A DNA stretch of 64,000 nucleotides from Bacillales bacterium UBA4694 (lineage in GTDB: Bacteria > Bacillota_I > Bacilli_A > RFN20 > CAG-288): contig DHKM01000027.1 in the NCBI GenBank assembly GCA_002404835.1, positions 15,514-79,513 of the forward strand, written 5' to 3'. The notes beneath the pieces are model-generated. The model was given only the letters and a program-made list of their open reading frames with translations, searched no databases and had not been told where the DNA came from. Numbering within the stretch: position 1 is the first letter of the stretch; the number at the start of each line of letters is the position of its first letter. Of the stretch, positions 28,382 through 61,558 are shown in pieces. Position numbers and translations under genes: made by a program.

Positions 28382-29250
28382 TCCTCATAGCCGAATTTCT
28401 TCAGATACTTATCGGAATTTCTCCATCCCGGAATGCATTTCACAACCAAATCACAATAACATGGTTTCCCGAAATAGGCAGAAATTGCCGTTTCACTGAA
28501 TTTCGAAATCGTAGAAATCATTTTGCCGTTTTGCCCAATGACGATTCCCTTTTCGGAATCTTTATCGACAATGATGTTGGCTCTCACTTCAATTCCGTCA
28601 TCTTCCTCTTCGACGCTTTTTACGTCAACATAAATGCTGTGCGGAACTTCCTTATCCAAAGTGCGCATGCATTTTTCACGAATGATTTCCGCTATAATAA
28701 ATTCCATCGGATGATCCGAAACCATATCGAGAGGATAATACGTTTCACCTTCGGGTAATTTATCTTTCAAGCAATTTAAAATCGTATCGATGTTAAATCC
28801 GTCTTTTGCAGAAGTTTCGATAAACTGGGCTTTAGGAAGGACTTCCTGATAACGAGCGAGTCTTTCTTTGGCGATATCAATCCGACAAAGATCGATTTTA
28901 TTGAATGCAACAATGACAGGGATATCCTGTTTCGATAATTTTTGTGCAAGTTCAAAATTTGGCGCTTCACTGGCATCAATAACATAAAGAATGACGTCAA
29001 CACCTTCTTTTGCATTTTCAGCATCTCTTAGAAGAATGGAGCCAAGCTTTGCATGAGGTTTGAAAACACCTGGAGTGTCGACAAAAACGATTTGACTATC
29101 TTCATCGTTATAGATTGCTTGGATGTTATCCCTTGTGGTCTGCGGTTTAGAAGATACAGCGAGGAGTTTGAATCCTAAGCATTTATTGATGATTGTGCTT
29201 TTACCGGCGTTAGCTCTTCCATAGACGCATACATATCCTACTTTTTTCAT
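28378..29250 (-). CDS. era: GTPase Era
   Basis: GRANAGKSTIIN (G1), DTPG (G3), NKID (G4) and a C-terminal KH domain (VDKDSEKGIVIGQNGKMI). Confidence 0.95.
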   Translation of the reverse strand: MKKVGYVCVYGRANAGKSTIINKCLGFKLLAVSSKPQTTRDNIQAIYNDEDSQIVFVDTPGVFKPHAKLGSILLRDAENAKEGVDVILYVIDASEAPNFELAQKLSKQDIPVIVAFNKIDLCRIDIAKERLARYQEVLPKAQFIETSAKDGFNIDTILNCLKDKLPEGETYYPLDMVSDHPMEFIIAEIIREKCMRTLDKEVPHSIYVDVKSVEEEDDGIEVRANIIVDKDSEKGIVIGQNGKMISTISKFSETAISAYFGKPCYCDLVVKCIPGWRNSDKYLKKFGYED

Positions 29251-30116
29251 GCTTTGAGGTCCTCTTTGGTAAAGGTGAAAGGAAGTAGTCCTTGCACCGT
29301 AGTAAATAGATGTTTGGTCGTATCCTTATTATAAATATATACTGGGGCAGAAAGTTCCATAAGCTCAGACATTACTTGCCTGCAGCTACCGCAACACGTT
29401 CCAACATTTGAGGAATCGGTTATAACACCAAGGCTAACAATGTCTTCTTTTCGATAGCCGGAGGCGTATGCATGATAAAGAGCGACTCTTTCCGCACACA
29501 TGGTAACTCCATAGGCTGAATTCTCGATGTTAAAGCCTTGCAGGTAGGTTCCATCTTTCATGACAAGGACTGCTCCGACGTGAAAATTAGAGTAAGGTGC
29601 AATTGATTTACTCTGCGCTTGGATTAGGTTCTTGACCAACTTCTTCTGATTCGTATAGAAATCAATGGGAAGATGGTTAAGAATATCGTTTTGAAGAGGG
29701 AACATGATTTTCGCATCCGCCTCTTTCATATGATCATATCCGAAAATATGAAGTAGTCCGTGAATGAAAAGAAAAGCAAGTTCCCTATCAAATGGATGTT
29801 TATATTCTTTTGCTTGTTTTTTTGCAATCGATGGGGAAATCAAAATGCTTCCCAAATCGATGATAGGATCATCCGGATTGAAGTCGGCCTCACGATAGGC
29901 AAATGTAAGAACATCTGTAGGACGATCGATTTTGCGATATTCTTTGTTCAACTTGTGAATTTCTTCATCAGATACAAGAGATAGGGAAACTTCATAATTT
30001 CCTTTTTTTCCCAAACGTTCCAATGTAAAATCAAAAACAGTCTGAAACAGTTCATTCAGTCCCTTTTTCTGATGTGTGTTGTCCAGATAATCCAGTACAT
30101 GCTGATATTCTTCCAT
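29247..30116 (-). CDS. ybeY: fusion protein: endoribonuclease YbeY (N-terminal) plus cytidine deaminase (C-terminal)
   Basis: Residues 1-150 carry EYRKIDRPTDVLTFAY and HGLLHIFGYDH (YbeY zinc site). Residues 155-289 carry APYSNFHVGAVL, CAERVALY and CGSCRQVMSE (Cdd zinc site). Confidence 0.85.
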   Translation of the reverse strand: MEEYQHVLDYLDNTHQKKGLNELFQTVFDFTLERLGKKGNYEVSLSLVSDEEIHKLNKEYRKIDRPTDVLTFAYREADFNPDDPIIDLGSILISPSIAKKQAKEYKHPFDRELAFLFIHGLLHIFGYDHMKEADAKIMFPLQNDILNHLPIDFYTNQKKLVKNLIQAQSKSIAPYSNFHVGAVLVMKDGTYLQGFNIENSAYGVTMCAERVALYHAYASGYRKEDIVSLGVITDSSNVGTCCGSCRQVMSELMELSAPVYIYNKDTTKHLFTTVQGLLPFTFTKEDLKA

Positions 30117-31338
30117 CAGTCTTACCTCCGCATTTAGCCCTATTATTATAAACGAAATGGCTGAATGATTTCACAGAAATATCAAGAGGTTGGCTTAAAG
30201 AATTGATTTTTGTACGAATTTTCGTTTCGTCTAATGAAATTCGAAGAAGTTTATAGAAGAGCATCGTAAAAGATAAGCCTAAAAAAAGATAAAATAGATA
30301 AAAATTAAGAGAATAACGTTTTCCAAAAGCCATTTCCAAAATGGTCAAAATGGATAAAACCAAAGCTTCAAGAATACATAGTGCAACAACGGTTTCCTCA
30401 AAAGAAGAGGCGATATCCCTGGCTTCGAAGAAATATTGAGAAAAGCCTTTTTCAGAAAGTTTTGACCGCATCATTTCCTCTTTTAACGAACAATCGCGAT
30501 CAATTTTGCAATATTTCCCATTCATGAAGAAAATTAGAAAAGAAAAGAAAAGGGAGACAAAGCCAAGAGCAATCACAAAGTTCCCATTGCTTAAGAAGAC
30601 AAAAAAAGACAGTACGGCACTAGAACCATAGCTAACCATAGAACTATAACGATTGATAGTTGAAGAAATCAAAGAAGAAAGGTTTACATAATCGTTATAA
30701 TTTCCGGTGCTTTCCAAAAAAGGGATAAGAATATCCGTATCAATCCGTTTCCTTGTTTTTTTATTCAAAAGCACTTGAATGAAAATAAAGAAGAAAGAAG
30801 AAATCAATAATATTATTTTTATTTCAAAAGCAATTTCTTCTGATAGAAAAAAGAAAAGAAGAGTCATGGACAAAGACTGGAAGACGAAAAGAAGAAAATA
30901 GAGAAGCAGTTCAAGGTTAGAAATCATTCGGCAAGTATCTTTCCGCTTTTTCCGTGAAAACAATTTTGTTATGAGTACTTTGCCGGTATAAACTTTCAAA
31001 AATTCTTCTATGGGCAAAAAATAAACACCAAATTCACTGTCAACAACTTGAATTCTAGACCCAATCCTTTTTGTGATAACAACAAAATGCAGTCTACCGC
31101 TGGGATAAAGAATCTGAGCTATCAACGGATAACATTTTTTATCTATCAAAAACAAATCCTTTTCAAGTCTTCCTTCCACGGAAACATGTACTTTTTCTAA
31201 AGCATTTTTCATGGATAGAAAATCCGAAATTTTCTCGAAAGGGTATGTTTCATACTTCCTATCCTTCATCAATATAGAAAGATAGTTCCTCAAACAAGCT
31301 CGACCGCAATCATCAATCTCATTCTGAAAAATCATCAT
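30052..31338 (-). CDS. C39 peptidase domain plus six-TM ABC-exporter-like membrane domain, with no nucleotide-binding domain (truncated exporter)
   Basis: FQNEIDDCGRACLRNYL (Q-x4-DCG), LHFVVI ... VVDSEFG (His/Asp), then six hydrophobic segments. GGGAGGAA lies 5 nt before the ATG at 31338. The 3' end runs 65 nt out of frame into ybeY. No Walker A motif. Confidence 0.65.
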   Translation of the reverse strand: MMIFQNEIDDCGRACLRNYLSILMKDRKYETYPFEKISDFLSMKNALEKVHVSVEGRLEKDLFLIDKKCYPLIAQILYPSGRLHFVVITKRIGSRIQVVDSEFGVYFLPIEEFLKVYTGKVLITKLFSRKKRKDTCRMISNLELLLYFLLFVFQSLSMTLLFFFLSEEIAFEIKIILLISSFFFIFIQVLLNKKTRKRIDTDILIPFLESTGNYNDYVNLSSLISSTINRYSSMVSYGSSAVLSFFVFLSNGNFVIALGFVSLFFSFLIFFMNGKYCKIDRDCSLKEEMMRSKLSEKGFSQYFFEARDIASSFEETVVALCILEALVLSILTILEMAFGKRYSLNFYLFYLFLGLSFTMLFYKLLRISLDETKIRTKINSLSQPLDISVKSFSHFVYNNRAKCGGKTDGRISACTGLSGQHTSEKGTE

Positions 31339-31383
31339 AAATTCCTCCCATAGACAATGGCCCATGGGAGGAAAAATTGTCCA

Positions 31384-56685: not shown

Positions 56686-57792
56686 CTAATGTAAGACAAA
56701 GAACAAAGGATCCTGAGTGCCCTTGACTGGATCATAGCCGAGTTTGGCAGCATATGCTTCATGCTGCTTGGAAAGAGCCATATCCTGTCTGGAAGCATCG
56801 ATTTCAGCCATGTTGTGATAGGCAATGCCAAGTCTTCTTTCGCCGGCAAGAGAATAGTAACGATAGGCAACGGTAAGATTCTTCGGATCATTGACTCTGC
56901 TTCTGAAGCAGTCGCCAAGATAATTCAAAGCATAAGGATAACCTTTTCTGGCAGAATCCATGATGAGATCATGACCCTTCTCATCATCCTTGAAGAGGTA
57001 GCTATTATCAAGATAAATGAGACCGAGCCTGTATTCCGCAGAGGCCGAGCCGCGGCTGATGGCAACCAAGTAGTATTTTCTGGCCATATCAAGATCGCGT
57101 GCAAGAAGGGAATTATAACCCTCATAAAGGAAAGCTACAAGAATAGCAGCTCTGGTAGATCCCTTTTCGGAAGCGGCTTTGGCAAGTTCGATACCATCGA
57201 GACGTTCCTGTTCGGTGGAAGCCGGATTGTCTATCATACGGATAGCCTGCAGAAGCATTTCTTCCTCGGAATCCTCTTTGAGAAGTGGGATGTCGGTCGG
57301 ATAGACGATTGCATCCGGATTTTCGGAGGTCTTGACCTCTTCGACAGGTTTCTCCTCCGGAGTTTCCTGAGCAGTCTCCTGAGTAGGCTGTTCCTTTTCC
57401 TTCTCGATCTCCTCGACCATCTTGGCAGCAACCTCATCGTCGTTGTCCTTGCAGGCAAGACGATAGTATTCCAAAGCACGTTCCTTATCCTGAGGCTCGC
57501 TTCCTAAGGCATAATAATAGTAATCACCTAAATCGTGATAATCCATGGAATCACAGTCTTCCTGGAAAAAATAGTTGCAAGATGCATCATAATATTGTCT
57601 TGCCATTTCAGCATCCGGTTCAATGCCGGTGCAACCTTCTCTCACGATACGTCCAATTTCAAAATAGGACTTACCTTTTTTGTCGGCTTTGCGGGCCGAT
57701 TTGTTGATAAGAGCAAGACCTTTGTTGACTTTCTTGCCTTCTTTGACCATCTCGAGACCAGCTTCAAGGTTAGAATCCATTGTATATGCCAT
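56686..57792 (-). CDS. Sel1-like (SLR/TPR) repeat protein, cytoplasmic, with an acidic central linker
   Basis: Repeated A..YY..A/G..G...A...LG..Y units, e.g. MARQYYDASCNYF, ALEYYRLACKD, MARKYYLVAISRGSASAEYRLGLIY, GYPYALNYLGDCF, AYRYYSLAGE. No signal peptide. Confidence 0.65.
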   Translation of the reverse strand: MAYTMDSNLEAGLEMVKEGKKVNKGLALINKSARKADKKGKSYFEIGRIVREGCTGIEPDAEMARQYYDASCNYFFQEDCDSMDYHDLGDYYYYALGSEPQDKERALEYYRLACKDNDDEVAAKMVEEIEKEKEQPTQETAQETPEEKPVEEVKTSENPDAIVYPTDIPLLKEDSEEEMLLQAIRMIDNPASTEQERLDGIELAKAASEKGSTRAAILVAFLYEGYNSLLARDLDMARKYYLVAISRGSASAEYRLGLIYLDNSYLFKDDEKGHDLIMDSARKGYPYALNYLGDCFRSRVNDPKNLTVAYRYYSLAGERRLGIAYHNMAEIDASRQDMALSKQHEAYAAKLGYDPVKGTQDPLFFVLH

Positions 57793-57870: not shown

Positions 57871-58527
57871 TCATTTTCCGGAAATTTCCGCCTTCTTAGC
57901 AAAAAATCCGGACATATACGAATAATTTTCACTGCCCAAAACCATAAAACCGACCATTCTGGCCTTTTTCTCAATCAGAATCTGACACAACCTATGATAG
58001 CAAGAAATGTCCGCTTCACTGAACTGGGGATTACCGCTAGGATGATTGTGAACAAAAAGCATCCCATCTCCTGCCAAGATAGGTAAATGATCGAATATTT
58101 CATAAGGAAACTGTATTTTGTCATAAAATCCAGAATCCTTCCGAACAATATGTTTTACTTTTCCATCCCGAGACAAAAGGAAAATCAGAAGAGCTTCCTT
58201 TTTTCTTTTGTAGAAAAAGGTCCTAGTCTGAAGAAAACAATCCTGGCAGGAGTTGATTTTTCCGATTGTCATCAAGGAAAAGCGTCTAATGAACTCTAAC
58301 GAAGTCATAAGCCGGAGACGTTTGACCTGCCCGATTCCGTTCCCATGTACCAAGCCTTCCCATTCGAAAAGGATGCTGGAAAGGCCGTGGTATTTGTCCA
58401 TGGTTTGCTTCGACAGGCTTAGGACGTCCGACTTCTTGCCACCTGTCTCAAGGACAAGCGCAAGAAGTTCTTCATCCGTCAAGGAGAACAATCCGCAGGA
58501 AAGTGCCTTCTCCCGTGGCTTCATCAT
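57871..58527 (-). CDS. radC: RadC-family JAB/MPN-domain protein (UPF0758)
   Basis: KPREKALSCGLFSLTDEELLALVLETGGKK (HhH N-terminus) and the HNHPSGNPQFSEADI JAMM motif. Confidence 0.88.
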   Translation of the reverse strand: MMKPREKALSCGLFSLTDEELLALVLETGGKKSDVLSLSKQTMDKYHGLSSILFEWEGLVHGNGIGQVKRLRLMTSLEFIRRFSLMTIGKINSCQDCFLQTRTFFYKRKKEALLIFLLSRDGKVKHIVRKDSGFYDKIQFPYEIFDHLPILAGDGMLFVHNHPSGNPQFSEADISCYHRLCQILIEKKARMVGFMVLGSENYSYMSGFFAKKAEISGK

Positions 58528-58709
58528 TCACCCCAGGAAAATTCGAATCCGCCTGGAAGTTTTGTTTTTCCTTTTTTCGACATGAAGATGCGGTAAACAA
58601 CAACAGCAACAACCCCTATAGCAAGAAGAGCCATGATGGCAGAAAGGGTGATCGCTTCACCACCTTTCGTGTCCATCATCTCCTGATCAGTAAGAATTCT
58701 ATGATCCAT
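58524..58709 (-). CDS. 61-aa peptide with a double-glycine-type leader and one hydrophobic helix
   Basis: MDHRILTDQEMMDTKGG|EAITLSAIMALLAIGVVAVVVYRIFMSKKGKTKLPGGFEFSWGE. AGGAGGT lies 8 nt upstream of the ATG. The stop overlaps the radC ATG (ATGA). Confidence 0.6.
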   Translation of the reverse strand: MDHRILTDQEMMDTKGGEAITLSAIMALLAIGVVAVVVYRIFMSKKGKTKLPGGFEFSWGE

Positions 58710-58760
58710 ATTAGGATACCTCCTATAGAAAATGGACCATAAAAGCAGAAAGCGTCCAGC

Positions 58761-61343
58761 CTATTTGGAGTACTTCTTTAGCTCATCAAGGAAGGATTGA
58801 TATTTTTCCTTCTCGCTCTTGACCTTCTCCGGATTTGCTCTGGAAACAAAATTCGGATTATTGAGCATCTTTTCGCTTCTTTCTATTTCTTTTTTCAAAA
58901 ACTCGACTCTTTTTTTGATTTTCTCCTGACTGGCCTCATCCTTGCTGTCATCAATAGCCAATGCGAAACTAGGCAGGTAAAGATAATCGTCCCTCTTATC
59001 CTGTGTAAGTACAATGCTCTTTGCAAAAGCAAAACGGGTAAGATAAGGTACCACGGCATCAAAGTTTTCCTTTCCACCACTGACTTTCAGGTCAATCGGG
59101 GAATTCGGAGCCAGTCCAAGTTCCGATTTATGGTTTCTCACAAGACGGATAGCCTCTCTCAAAGAAAGAGCAAGATCCCTTGTTTTCTTGTCAATCTGAT
59201 ATCCGCTCAAAACCGGATAGGATTCCTCATAGATGGACTTCTTGCCGAAAGGAAGATAAGAGTAGATTTCCTCGGTGATAAACGGAGCAAACGGGAAAAG
59301 GACGATGAGGATTCTCTTGAGAATATCATAGAGAACATTGTAAGTGACTTCCTTGTCCGTATCTTTCAAAGTCAAAGCGACTTTGGAATACTCCAAATAT
59401 TCGGAACAGAACTCATCATAGACAAAATGATATACATAATCGGCAGCCTGGCCAAGTTCATATTTATCCATATTGGTCTTGACGTTTTCCAAAAGTCTGT
59501 CTGCTTCATCGTAGATAAAACGGTCAAGATAGGAAAGCCTGGATTCATCGATTTTCTTCGGAACAAAGTCGTCTGGGAGAAGAGAAAGGATATAACGCGA
59601 AGCATTCCAGACTTTGTTTAGGAAATTATGAGCGTTTTCGACCTTATTGTAAGAGAAGTTGATGTCCAAACCCGGAGTTCCGCCGGTAGCAAGAGCATAA
59701 CGGAGAGAATCCGTTCCATATTTTTCGATCACTTCGAAAGGATCGATTCCGTTTCCTAAGGATTTAGACATCTTCCTTCCTTGACTGTCACGGACAAGTC
59801 CATGGATATACACTTTCTTAAATGGCATTTTCCCGGTGAAATGTAGACCTTCGAAGGCCATTCTTTCAACCCAGAAAAAGATAATGTCATAGGCAGTGAC
59901 CATAACATCAAGAGGATAGAATCTCTTGAACAGAGGATCTTCACAATTCGGCCATCCCAGGAATGCAAAAGGAGCAAGAGCAGAAGAAAACCAAGTATCC
60001 AAAACATCCGGATCCTGACTATAGACTTCCGGATCCATAGGATCTACCGAGCAGACGACTTCGCCGGTATTTTTGTTGGTATAGACAGGGATTCTATGTC
60101 CCCACCAAAGCTGACGTGAAATACACCAGTCATCAGTCTTGGAAAGCCACTGGTAGAAGATATCCTTGAATCTTTCCGGGAAAAAGACCGTTCTCTGATC
60201 GGTATTCTGAATTTCCATAACCGCTTTGCTCAGGGCATCCATCTTAACAAACCACTGTTTGGAAAGCATCGGCTCGACAACAGCTTTGCTTCTTTCGGAA
60301 TGTCCGACATTGTGAACGATGTCTTCGACCTTGATAAGGTCACCCTGCTGCTTGATTTTCTCTACGATTTTCTTTCTGCAGGCATAACGGTCGAGGGAAA
60401 CATATTCCTTCGGGCAGTTCTCGTTCATGGTCGCATCTTCGTTCATGGTCTTCACGAATTTCAGACCGTGGCGTTTGGCAATCTGGAAATCGTTCGGATC
60501 ATGGGCAGGAGTGCACTTCATGACGCCGGTACCGAATTCCTTGTCGACATAACGGTCGGCAATAAGAGGGAGAAGTTCGCCGTTTGCCGGATTGATGACT
60601 TTTTTCCCTTCCAGGCCCTGATAACGTTCGTCTTCCGGGTTGAAGCAGACCGCCTGGTCACCGAACATCGTCTCTGGACGGGTAGTTGCCACTTCCAGAT
60701 AGCGGGAATGGTCTTCAAGCCAATATTTGAAATAATAGAATTTACCGTTATCCTGGCTATATACGACTTCGATATCACTGAGAGCCGTCTTTAATACCGG
60801 ATCCCAGTTGATGATTCTTTCCCCACGATAAATAAGCCCTTCGTCATAGAGTCTCTTGAAGACAACATTGACTGCTTTCACCATTCCAGGATCCAAAGTA
60901 AATCGTTCCTTGGAATAATCCATGGACAGACCCAAGGCTTTCCATTGTTTGGTGATGTAGTCCCCGTGTTCTTCTTTCCATTTCCAGGCTTCTTTCAAGA
61001 AGCCTTCTCTTCCAAGCTCGTATTTGTTCTTTCCCTCTTCCTTCAACTTTGCTTCGACTTTAGCCTGAGTGGCAATGCCGGCATGATCCATATCCGCGAG
61101 GAAAAGGACATCATACCCGCAAAGTTTCTTATAACGGGCGATGATATCCAGAATCGTGGTATTTGTCGCATGTCCGATATGAAGGATACCGGTAACATTC
61201 GGCGGAGGAACGATCATCGAAAACGGAGGTTTGGAGAGATTCTCTTCCCTCATAGCCTCAAAATAACCGTTCTTTTCCCAGAATTCCTCTTTGCCAGCTT
61301 CGGAAATCTTGCTGTCATACGCTTTTGCCATTTCTTTTTTCAT
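58761..61343 (-). CDS. valS: valine--tRNA ligase
   Basis: PPPNVTGILHIGHA (HIGH), KMSKSLGN (KMSKS), a CP1 editing domain and a C-terminal coiled coil. ATG at 61343 (MKKEMAKAYD) follows the T-box leader. The ORF-track start at 61373 lies inside the leader. Confidence 0.95.
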   Translation of the reverse strand: MKKEMAKAYDSKISEAGKEEFWEKNGYFEAMREENLSKPPFSMIVPPPNVTGILHIGHATNTTILDIIARYKKLCGYDVLFLADMDHAGIATQAKVEAKLKEEGKNKYELGREGFLKEAWKWKEEHGDYITKQWKALGLSMDYSKERFTLDPGMVKAVNVVFKRLYDEGLIYRGERIINWDPVLKTALSDIEVVYSQDNGKFYYFKYWLEDHSRYLEVATTRPETMFGDQAVCFNPEDERYQGLEGKKVINPANGELLPLIADRYVDKEFGTGVMKCTPAHDPNDFQIAKRHGLKFVKTMNEDATMNENCPKEYVSLDRYACRKKIVEKIKQQGDLIKVEDIVHNVGHSERSKAVVEPMLSKQWFVKMDALSKAVMEIQNTDQRTVFFPERFKDIFYQWLSKTDDWCISRQLWWGHRIPVYTNKNTGEVVCSVDPMDPEVYSQDPDVLDTWFSSALAPFAFLGWPNCEDPLFKRFYPLDVMVTAYDIIFFWVERMAFEGLHFTGKMPFKKVYIHGLVRDSQGRKMSKSLGNGIDPFEVIEKYGTDSLRYALATGGTPGLDINFSYNKVENAHNFLNKVWNASRYILSLLPDDFVPKKIDESRLSYLDRFIYDEADRLLENVKTNMDKYELGQAADYVYHFVYDEFCSEYLEYSKVALTLKDTDKEVTYNVLYDILKRILIVLFPFAPFITEEIYSYLPFGKKSIYEESYPVLSGYQIDKKTRDLALSLREAIRLVRNHKSELGLAPNSPIDLKVSGGKENFDAVVPYLTRFAFAKSIVLTQDKRDDYLYLPSFALAIDDSKDEASQEKIKKRVEFLKKEIERSEKMLNNPNFVSRANPEKVKSEKEKYQSFLDELKKYSK

Positions 61344-61520
61344 AAAAAAAGCCTCCAAGTTGAAGGGACGCACCTATAGTGCGCGGTACCACCCCTCTTC
61401 GGCATAACCGCTCTCTTTCGTCAAAGGCTCCAAGACGACTCGGAAGTTCTGACCGCTCTTTTCCACCAAACAAGAGCTCTCTCTGGATCAGTTGTCTTCT
61501 TCCCTTCTTTTCAACGCCTA
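61344..61520 (-). promoter_or_regulatory. T-box leader RNA (valine specifier GUC) controlling valS
   Basis: Minus strand AGAGGGGTGGTACCGCG (T-box motif, plus-strand 61382-61395). AG-bay AGAGAGAG (61477-61484). Specifier-loop GUCGUC (61434-61439). Antiterminator GAAGAGGG/bulge UGGUACC/GCGCAC-UAUAG-GUGCGU/CCCUUC. A downstream CCUUC-AACUU-GGAGG hairpin plus U7 precedes the ATG. Confidence 0.85.
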
Positions 61521-61558
61521 GAATATTGTAAAGCAAAACAACTTCCTTGAAAAGAAAA

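Follow-up and report, generated by a model that had tools for sequence, protein, structure and literature searches.

Double-glycine leaders and peptidase-containing ABC transporters (PCATs) are familiar from bacteriocins, pheromones and toxins, which they serve as accessory machinery. In the window studied here, that is, the whole stretch of 64,000 nucleotides from Bacillales bacterium UBA4694, a small open reading frame with a leader of this kind lies inside a housekeeping unit (Table 1), which raises the question of what such a peptide is doing there. On our best reading, which draws on sequence comparison, the small gene would encode the precursor of a housekeeping micro-membrane peptide, descended from a precursor of the class II bacteriocin type with its double-glycine leader.

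Table 1. Features of the window discussed in the text, in order of position
Feature	Positions	Strand	Remarks
C39 peptidase with six-helix ABC-exporter-type membrane domain (C39-TMD)	30052..31335/31365	(-)	427 aa, ATPase-less PCAT homologue
radC (UPF0758 / RadC JAB domain)	57871..58527	(-)	Pfam RadC and UPF0758_N matches
Small gene	58524..58709	(-)	61 codons and stop; encodes a conserved single-pass membrane peptide, either whole or as its precursor
Mature part of small protein	58527..58658	(-)	Codons 18-61: invariant EAITL, TM helix AITLSAIMALLAIGVVAVVVY, basic juxtamembrane stretch, C-terminal LPGGFxFxW
Leader-like N-terminus	58659..58709	(-)	Codons 1-17, MDHRILTDQEMMDTKGG, double-glycine type: L-12, E-8, M-7, T-4, G-2, G-1
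N-terminal tryptic peptide of full-length small protein			MDHRILTDQEMMDTK
Shine-Dalgarno AGGAGGT	58718..58724	(-)	8 nt before the small-gene ATG
valS	58761..61343	(-)	51 nt upstream of the small gene, no terminator between
T-box leader with terminator hairpin	61361..61523	(-)	RF00230, 72 bits, E 6e-15; Rfam gathering score of 93 not reached

The small gene is real, looks translated and is under strong purifying selection. An earlier reading made from the letters alone (hereafter, the sequence-only reading) had taken this frame between valS and radC for a true gene with a strong Shine-Dalgarno site, and both claims held: our translation is the same, an exact AGGAGGT occurs in only seven places of the window, each on the gene strand, and a GGAGG-type site at the same spacing precedes every orthologue at the 39 genome loci and 70 metagenome loci where the gene is conserved. 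We collected 122 distinct orthologues; their loci, more than 100 in number, belong to uncultured Bacilli of order RFN20 and related groups. The search of relatives for a small frame upstream of radC was positive, and almost all orthologues lie between valS and radC. The dN/dS is about 0.19 in the mature part and 0.68 in the leader. Among relatives the small proteins share 50-78% identity, compared with 24-42% for RadC and 43-85% for ValS, the conservation of the mature part being on par with that of ValS. No real match was obtained in the Pfam search, nor any match in plasmid or phage collections, and these small proteins (about 120 distinct ones) are currently annotated only as hypothetical. 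A match in Pyrinomonadaceae (L040) was set aside as chance. A type I toxin was also considered, and was rejected in view of the strong Shine-Dalgarno site, the fixed synteny and the strong purifying selection.

The surroundings of the gene are those of a housekeeping operon. A promoter-like site (61553..61525) and a terminator-like site (61366..61352) stand ahead of valS, which likely starts at the ATG at 61343 rather than at the GTG at 61373. At the gathering score the window gave no Rfam match, and no tRNA was detected in it. The T-box controls valS and probably also the small gene and radC. Co-transcription with valS, as proposed in the sequence-only reading, is probable, the terminator scan having found no terminator-like site in the gap between the two, and by its position the small gene is probably expressed together with both valS and radC. 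Its TGA overlaps the first ATG of radC (ATGA, 58524-58527), and this tight coupling, noticed before in the window, is seen in most relatives: the gap to radC is mostly of -10 to +11 nt, and radC follows directly in all 39 genome loci and in 58 of the 70 metagenome loci. Across more than 100 loci the gene is surrounded by valS, radC, a Sel1-repeat gene, rplU, lon and engB, which agrees with the earlier placement of the gene in a housekeeping unit and not in a bacteriocin locus. Its position in this conserved block is fixed across all sampled lineages, with ValS diverged to about 40% identity. In this sense, the small gene belongs to the core, being present in single copy and with a fixed place in an ancestral block of Firmicute genes.

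The N-terminus is where the likeness to bacteriocin precursors resides. The published rule for recognition by C39 peptidases is L(-12)x3E(-8)L(-7) followed by GG, GA or GS; residues -4, -7 and -12 of the leader are seated in a hydrophobic groove, and in LahT150 the change of L-7 to Asp or Lys strongly impairs cleavage (PMC6363468). The 17-residue leader of the window protein, with GG at its end, is in the range of the class, whose leaders have about 15-30 residues and close with GG, GA or GS; the protein comes from the only free-standing frame in the window with such a leader pattern. Position -12 is L, I or M in about 100% of the sequences and -8 is E or D in about 90%. Position -4 is V, T, I or L in 96% of the GG-type sequences and His in half of the non-GG type, while -7 is Glu in 45 of the 94 GG-type sequences. 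The pattern of a double-glycine leader fits the window protein (L, E, M, T and GG at these positions) and the 94 distinct orthologues that carry the GG pair (77%); it does not extend to the 28 of 122 (23%) in which the pair is none of GG, GA or GS (VG 14, TG 5, PG 3, GN 2, GK 1, also SG, IG and CG). Orthologues upstream of radC without GG, which the sequence-only reading had named as evidence against itself, are found in part of the family. Gly at -1 is kept in 119 of 122, and 25 distinct orthologues have V, T, P, S, I or C instead of the Gly at -2. The non-GG lineages are abundant, one variant occurring on up to 436 contigs, and they present a different conserved motif, (N/Q)H(Y/V)(V/T)G. These 28 orthologues imply that canonical C39 cleavage at this site is not universal, unless the specificity of the enzyme co-evolved.

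In the searches with leader and bacteriocin models, TIGR03949 scored 20.1 bits (E 4e-4) against the window protein, under its curated cut-off of 21.5, and TIGR01847 did not match it. Among 52 family members (E<0.01), TIGR03949 matched nine (best E 1.6e-5), TIGR01847 two and a lantibiotic leader model two. The small protein resembles the class IIb family of TIGR03949 (lactobin A/cerein 7B) in its leader and in the start of a hydrophobic core rich in small residues; it differs in that the match spans residues 5-36 only, LPGGFxFxW has no counterpart in the model, and the gene has neither a partner peptide nor an immunity gene.

The mature part had been described as one hydrophobic helix with a basic patch, and the family data agree. 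The core helix has 21-23 residues and a net charge of about +0.7, and the best 19-residue Kyte-Doolittle window has a family mean of 2.7. A PDB profile search with the family returned generic transmembrane helices only (e.g. TLR4). The basic residues lie on the C-terminal side of the helix; on average the leader has about 3.0 acidic versus 2.1 basic residues, and the C-terminal tail 3.2 basic versus 1.2 acidic. By its sequence, the protein answers to the description of a small single-pass membrane protein, with one hydrophobic helix of about 20 residues and flanking charges. With so classic a transmembrane helix, followed by a tail that is both basic and aromatic, the mature part is not a typical secreted bacteriocin. 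Other membrane-associated classes were discarded. The G|EAITL junction is unlike the G|FTLxE or G|xTAIEY of type IV or Flp prepilins, and there is no Pfam pilin match. For a sorting signal of the LPXTG-like sortase or GlyGly-CTERM type the small protein has no cargo domain, and sortases are absent from RFN20 (PMC10868615).

A putative partner was sought in the only C39 domain of the window, whose presence 27 kb away was upheld (PF03412, 32.5 bits versus a cut-off of 22). Its gene is, by sequence, a plausible partner in spite of the distance. The AlphaFold2 (AF2) model has a pLDDT of 89.4 and six long helices, and its top 13 Foldseek matches are all PCAT1 chains, over about 455 columns that comprise the peptidase and the membrane part and nothing else. 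Some 50 residues past TM6 the protein ends, and ybeY begins at once; the Walker A/B and LSGGQ nucleotide-binding domain is absent from it, and no ABC signature motif was found anywhere in the window. An exhaustive HMM search gave 128 cluster representatives at E<1e-10, nearly all of 380-435 aa and matching end to end, and few distant members were among the matches listed in a profile search of a set of 5.8 billion proteins. Of the roughly 170 members, which carry at most a generic C39-domain name, the catalytic Cys is kept in 169/169 and the His in 171/171; Q, C, H and D are invariant in 62 diverse ones. Their genes are always immediately upstream of ybeY, in a ybeY-era-recO operon. No frame with a GG leader was found beside the gene in 8 loci, which leaves it without an adjacent substrate, and no C39 gene was found within 5-10 kb of the small gene in about 110 loci. 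Our literature search brought up no publication that links C39 to ybeY or describes PCATs devoid of the nucleotide-binding domain, and for 'double-glycine' with 'radC' it gave streptococcal competence regulons and not the small gene. A contig from a second species (ERZ27271093:k141_613477) carries orthologues of both the small gene (82% identity) and the C39-TMD gene (about 56%), 27 kb apart and on the same strand as in the window, and assembly ERZ27279212 has both on two contigs; this co-occurrence was seen in the window species and one or two close relatives only.

With these elements, we tentatively favour, at somewhat less than an even chance, that the small protein is a core pre-peptide which would be trimmed by the ATPase-less PCAT homologue and kept in the membrane. 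The 61-residue product would be complete before its hydrophobic segment leaves the ribosome, which would imply post-translational handling. Its acidic, amphipathic N-terminal helix may dock on the cytoplasmic C39 domain (30052-31335) through L/M at -12, E at -8, M/L or E at -7 and V/I/T at -4, and the cut would fall after the Gly that precedes the invariant EAITL. As there is no ATPase to power export, the hydrophobic core of 42-46 residues would not be released as a soluble product but would leave the transporter-like cavity for the membrane. It would remain as a single membrane helix, the basic and aromatic tail (Y-K/R...LPGGFxFxW) lying at the cytoplasmic interface. The data show a real gene under purifying selection, the leader pattern, the PCAT fold without its nucleotide-binding domain, the invariant catalytic residues, the situation of both genes in core operons and their presence on the same contig in two species; pairing, cleavage, final location and cellular role are what we infer. 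Against this reading count the 28 non-canonical pairs, the Glu at -7 in about half of the GG-type sequences, the window protein falling under the TIGR03949 cut-off with no TIGR01847 match, and the narrow range of species in which both genes were seen together; an ATPase may also be supplied in trans from elsewhere in the genome.

A second reading, the main rival and in our view only a little less probable, is that of an uncleaved bitopic micro-membrane protein, whose likeness to a GG leader would come from ancestry or convergence. The acidic N-terminal helix would have its function outside the membrane, in an N-out orientation given by the positive-inside rule; the Gly conserved ahead of EAITL would serve as a hinge, and the C39-TMD protein would act on something else. 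The charges of leader and tail fit such an N-out/C-in orientation, the family profile matches canonical transmembrane helices and the housekeeping operon suits it; also, near-universality is limited to the Gly at -1, that at -2 being replaced in 25 orthologues, and the separate motif of the non-GG lineages suggests an N-terminal segment with a function of its own. This reading, however, has to accommodate L-12, E-8 and the hydrophobic -4 and -7 residues spaced exactly as in C39 substrates, the match of several bacteriocin-leader HMMs to family members, and a leader that evolves far faster than the core, as expected of a disposable recognition tag. It would also leave unexplained a C39-TMD protein which is catalytically intact by its residues, universally conserved and substrate-less in the same small genomes. 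A partnership with RadC is compatible with either the trimmed or the uncleaved form and excludes neither. The small protein, processed or not, would be a membrane anchor or partner subunit of RadC, the coupling setting their ratio; we find this unlikely. The sequence-only reading had put forward such a partnership, and the part that stands is the adjacency of radC in most loci with its narrow gap, the pair staying together even where valS is not upstream (L004-L007, L039, L077, L090). The strict form is weakened by lineages that keep valS and the small gene with no radC beside them (L085 and L087, valS-small-sel1; L110-112, valS-small-rplU), and RadC evolves much faster than its supposed partner.

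The conventional proposal of the sequence-only reading, an exported class II bacteriocin or pheromone, fared worst and seems to us very improbable, whether the exporter were a complete PCAT elsewhere or the C39-TMD protein with a separate ATPase. What speaks for it is the leader consensus with GG in the window protein, the near-threshold match to TIGR03949, and a size and small-xxx-small pattern (A19, S/T23, A27) which we take to be like those of some two-peptide bacteriocins. Yet a single-copy gene held in one place of an ancestral housekeeping block while ValS diverged is not what this proposal predicts, and neither immunity, transporter, accessory nor regulator genes were found within 5-10 kb in more than 100 loci. 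The core is a full-length transmembrane helix of low net charge, and its conservation exceeds that of the leader, contrary to the usual pattern in bacteriocin and RiPP families; the gene is absent from plasmid and phage collections; and the nearby C39 protein is ATPase-less in a window with no ABC ATPase signature.

Returning to the trimmed, membrane-retained peptide, its leader in the window protein and part of the family (L at -12, E at -8, hydrophobic -7 and -4, GG) resembles those of PCAT1-CtA, ComA-ComC, LahT-LahA and the class II bacteriocins, and the C39-TMD protein is like PCATs in its Q/C/H/D cysteine peptidase fused to a six-helix exporter-type domain with a PCAT1-like structure. It is unlike PCATs in having no nucleotide-binding domain. 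Unlike in double-glycine systems, peptide and protease are encoded 27 kb apart in separate housekeeping operons, a strongly conserved transmembrane helix takes the place of a variable secreted cargo as the peptide core, and the canonical Gly pair is missing in 23% of the orthologues. The C39-TMD protein shares with the HlyB type an N-terminal C39 fold on an ABC-exporter membrane domain. As described in the parts of the literature on which we draw (PMC6363468, PMC11026475), C39-like domains of HlyB type have lost the catalytic Cys and kept the ATPase; relative to those descriptions the C39-TMD protein would be the reverse, with catalytic residues kept and ATPase lost.

Both halves look like core genes in a large, uncultured branch of Bacilli from guts and digesters, some of them wall-less. 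By its residues, the transporter half appears to have lost the motor and kept the protease. It is conceivable, and we advance it with reserve, that a bacteriocin-secretion module was domesticated in RFN20 and related Bacilli with reduced genomes as a hitherto unrecognised housekeeping system, in which the ATPase-less PCAT would serve a conserved 44-residue membrane peptide as its own leader peptidase, and perhaps also as its membrane insertase, the specificity of the protease having co-evolved away from Gly-Gly in the VG, TG and PG lineages. If the pairing is true, machinery for export can turn into a device that matures and inserts a membrane micro-protein, nature offers a PCAT that works in the absence of ATP, a natural series of non-Gly-Gly sites becomes available for studies of C39 specificity, and two families (about 120 distinct small proteins and 170 C39-TMD proteins) are assigned to something testable. 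If it is wrong, the small protein is still among the best-conserved unannotated micro-proteins of these genomes.

A dedicated cysteine protease, Prp, removes an N-terminal extension from the core protein L27 in Firmicutes. This is a precedent for a housekeeping protein with a short propeptide and a universally conserved cysteine protease of its own to remove it; Prp, however, is soluble, and has no relation to the present case in fold, substrate or cleavage motif. The genes rplU-prp-rpmA lie 2 kb downstream in the window.

The 61-codon ORF between valS and radC is a genuine, highly conserved gene. Its retranslation agrees with the sequence-only reading, of which every checkable detail was correct: the strong ribosome binding site (AGGAGGT occurs exactly seven times in the 64 kb, always on the minus strand, which is the gene strand), the ATGA shared by its TGA and the radC ATG, and the T-box control of valS without a terminator before the small ORF. 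A scan of the 51-nt gap between valS and the small gene found no terminator-like site. The valS leader clearly matches RF00230 with 72 bits (E 6e-15), but this is under the Rfam gathering score of 93, so that Rfam with default settings reports nothing for the window. Among 5.8 billion proteins, a word-indexed search gave 49 relatives of 57-66 residues, none of them with a functional name. Scans of one genome per species and of metagenome contigs provided 39 relevant and 70 small-gene loci respectively, and pooling these with the protein matches yielded 122 distinct sequences. A GGAGG-type site lies at the same spacing in every orthologue. Within the same genomes, identity to the window proteins is 50-78% for the small protein, 43-85% for ValS and 24-42% for RadC.

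Features of the small-gene and ybeY regions in window coordinates
Feature	Position	Strand	Remarks
C39-TMD ORF (C39 peptidase plus membrane domain)	30052..31365	-	start probably M11, position 31335, giving 427 residues
ybeY-cdd fusion	29247-30116	-	one 289-aa ORF
Sel1-repeat protein gene	56686-57792	-	368 aa
Promoter-like site of Sel1-repeat gene	57860-57832		TTGAAA-17-TATAAT
radC	57871..58527	-	Pfam RadC and UPF0758_N
Small ORF	58524..58709	-	MDHRILTDQEMMDTKGGEAITLSAIMALLAIGVVAVVVYRIFMSKKGKTKLPGGFEFSWGE
Shine-Dalgarno AGGAGGT	58718..58724	-	8 nt 5' of small-gene ATG
valS start	61343		probable ATG
valS T-box leader and terminator hairpin	61361..61523	-	RF00230

Substrates of C39 peptidases carry leaders that end in GG, GA or GS and a recognition helix L(-12)x3E(-8)L(-7), whose positions -4, -7 and -12 fit into a groove of hydrophobic residues; with LahT150, Asp or Lys in place of L-7 greatly reduces cleavage, whereas substitutions at E-8 are tolerated (PMC6363468). 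The proposal that codons 1-17 form a double-glycine leader held in part. Position -12 is L/I/M in nearly all of the 122 distinct sequences, -8 is E/D in about 90%, the GG pair is present in 94, and -4 is V/T/I/L in 96% of the GG-type sequences; many deep-branching members have textbook leaders, e.g. MRKLNDEELAKISGG. However, about half of the GG-type sequences carry Glu at -7, and the loss of the pair, named beforehand as contrary evidence, was found in some orthologues: at -2, 25 distinct ones show V, T, P, S, I or C instead of Gly (NHYVG, QHVTG, TIVPG, SIRCG and others), and three have GN or GK. Non-GG lineages are common, with 436 contigs for one variant and 394 for a second. Those among L048-L117 have, ahead of EAITL, a conserved motif that is particular to them; it typically reads (N/Q)-H-(Y/V/I)-(V/T)-G and places His at -4. 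In profile searches, TIGR03949 (a class IIb bacteriocin model) matches 9 of 52 representative members (best E 1.6e-5), and TIGR01847 and a lantibiotic leader model two each; the window protein, with 20.1 bits, stays just under the TIGR03949 cut-off of 21.5.

The core (codons 18-61) starts with an invariant EAITL, followed by a hydrophobic helix of 21-23 residues (best 19-residue Kyte-Doolittle mean, 2.7) that terminates in Y-(K/R). A tail of about 21 residues, averaging 3.2 basic and 1.2 acidic, bears the motif LPGG(F/W)xFxW. In the alignment E18, G53, F57 and W59 are invariant, and conservation reaches 90% or more at G17, A19, T21, L22, Y39, F42, P52 and G54. A sequence profile search of the PDB returned single-pass transmembrane helices only, e.g. 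TLR4.

The C39 domain reported 27 kb away was confirmed by PF03412 (32.5 bits, cut-off 22). It is followed by six long helices and a short tail; the protein lacks a nucleotide-binding domain, and the ABC signature motif occurs nowhere in the 64-kb window. When 1.8 billion cluster representatives were searched exhaustively with an HMM, 347 relatives passed E<1e-3 and 128 passed E<1e-10; nearly all have 380-435 residues and align over their full length; the sole protein of ABC-transporter length (696 residues) among the best 150 matches aligned via the C39 domain alone. In 62 diverse members, with identity as low as 18%, Q, C, H and D never vary, and the catalytic Cys and His are kept in 169/169 and 171/171 sequences. 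For the AlphaFold model from that alignment (pLDDT 89.4, pTM 0.82), the best 13 Foldseek matches in the PDB were all chains of PCAT1, a peptidase-containing ABC transporter (PCAT), with peptidase and membrane domain aligned; the C39 domains of LahT and ComA, on their own, ranked next. The gene lies immediately upstream of ybeY in nine independent contexts, in the order (rpsU or dnaB-dnaI)-C39TMD-ybeY-cdd-era-recO-glyS-dnaG-sigA; in the window the ybeY start falls inside its 3' end, with a 65-nt overlap. These genomes thus keep, as a core gene, a motor-less PCAT that is catalytically intact by its residues. The family has about 170 members, always directly upstream of ybeY where examined (window, L044-L047, L118-L120, L131-L133), and NCBI names them only 'cysteine peptidase family C39 domain-containing protein' or 'hypothetical'. 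The fusion of YbeY endoribonuclease with cytidine deaminase is common to the close relatives L047 and L118-L120; in the deeper L044-L046, L131 and L132 the two are separate, overlapping genes.

The small gene adjoins the C39-TMD gene in no locus examined, and no candidate substrate gene was found beside the latter. Both lie on one 156-kb contig of a second species (ENA ERZ27271093:k141_613477), the small gene near 121.4 kb (82% identity) and the C39-TMD gene at 148.7-150.0 kb (about 56%), 27 kb apart on the same strand as in the window. Assembly ERZ27279212 has both on two contigs. Same-genome evidence covers the window and these two assemblies, which come from close relatives and not from deep or non-GG lineages. 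The link is therefore circumstantial and rests on an orphan protease (without nearby substrate) and an orphan leader peptide (without nearby protease), both core genes of the same clade.

The reading that we consider most likely, still tentatively, is a core pre-peptide whose leader the ATPase-less PCAT would bind and cut off, leaving the hydrophobic core in the membrane. Its main rival, a possible though less favored one, is that no cleavage takes place and the leader-like helix is one of the functional elements of a bitopic micro-protein; the main argument for it is that a fifth of the orthologues have lost Gly at -2. The exported signal or bacteriocin-like peptide suggested earlier is not supported, and secretion as a conventional bacteriocin or pheromone is unlikely: by its anatomy the core appears to be a resident membrane helix (net charge about +0.7) and not a diffusible cationic bacteriocin. 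Additionally, the core is much more constrained than the leader (pairwise dN/dS 0.19 after the Gly pair versus 0.68 before it), and bacteriocin and RiPP families usually show the reverse. Under either main reading the protein may act as a partner of RadC, but the data do not require it. GG-leaders and PCATs are known components; here they stand in a configuration of which no description was found in the annotation or literature searched.

Relatives do keep the small ORF upstream of radC, which lies directly 3' in 39/39 genome and 58/70 metagenome loci, as a rule with a gap of -10 to +11 nt; valS is directly 5' in 34/39 and 58/70. Neither neighbor is obligatory, as the orders valS-small-sel1 (L085, L087), valS-small-rplU (L110-112) and tyrS-EamA-small-radC (L004-7) denote. 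L077 and L090 (9009-12222) have dnaB-dnaI-YqfD-small-radC-M23-M50-rplU, where the small gene has a YqfD-like sporulation gene on its 5' side and radC on its 3' side, and SpoIVFA-like (M23) and SpoIVFB-like (M50) genes come next; therefore, spore-forming relatives too carry it. This block is preceded by pyk, then dnaB-dnaI, and the same dnaB-dnaI precede the C39-TMD gene in the window. The widely common order is lon-engB-valS-small-radC-(Sel1 protein)-rplU-prp-rpmA-obg-ruvAB-secDF-recJ, which is a shortened form of the Bacillus subtilis block valS-folC-comC-spoIIB-maf-radC-mreBCD-minCD-spoIVFAB-rplU-prp-rpmA-spo0B-obg. One locus comes from Candidatus Enterosoma, of GTDB order RFN20, family CAG-288 (PMC8035907); peptidoglycan is predicted absent in this family (PMC10868615), in agreement with the absence of mreBCD after radC. 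Most close relatives keep the Sel1-repeat protein (41-70% identity) downstream of radC, and its gene has its own strong promoter-like site just past the radC stop. The 64-kb window holds no tRNA genes, and nearly all of its genes are on the minus strand, with few exceptions such as pyk-rok-thrS (33.8-38.1 kb).
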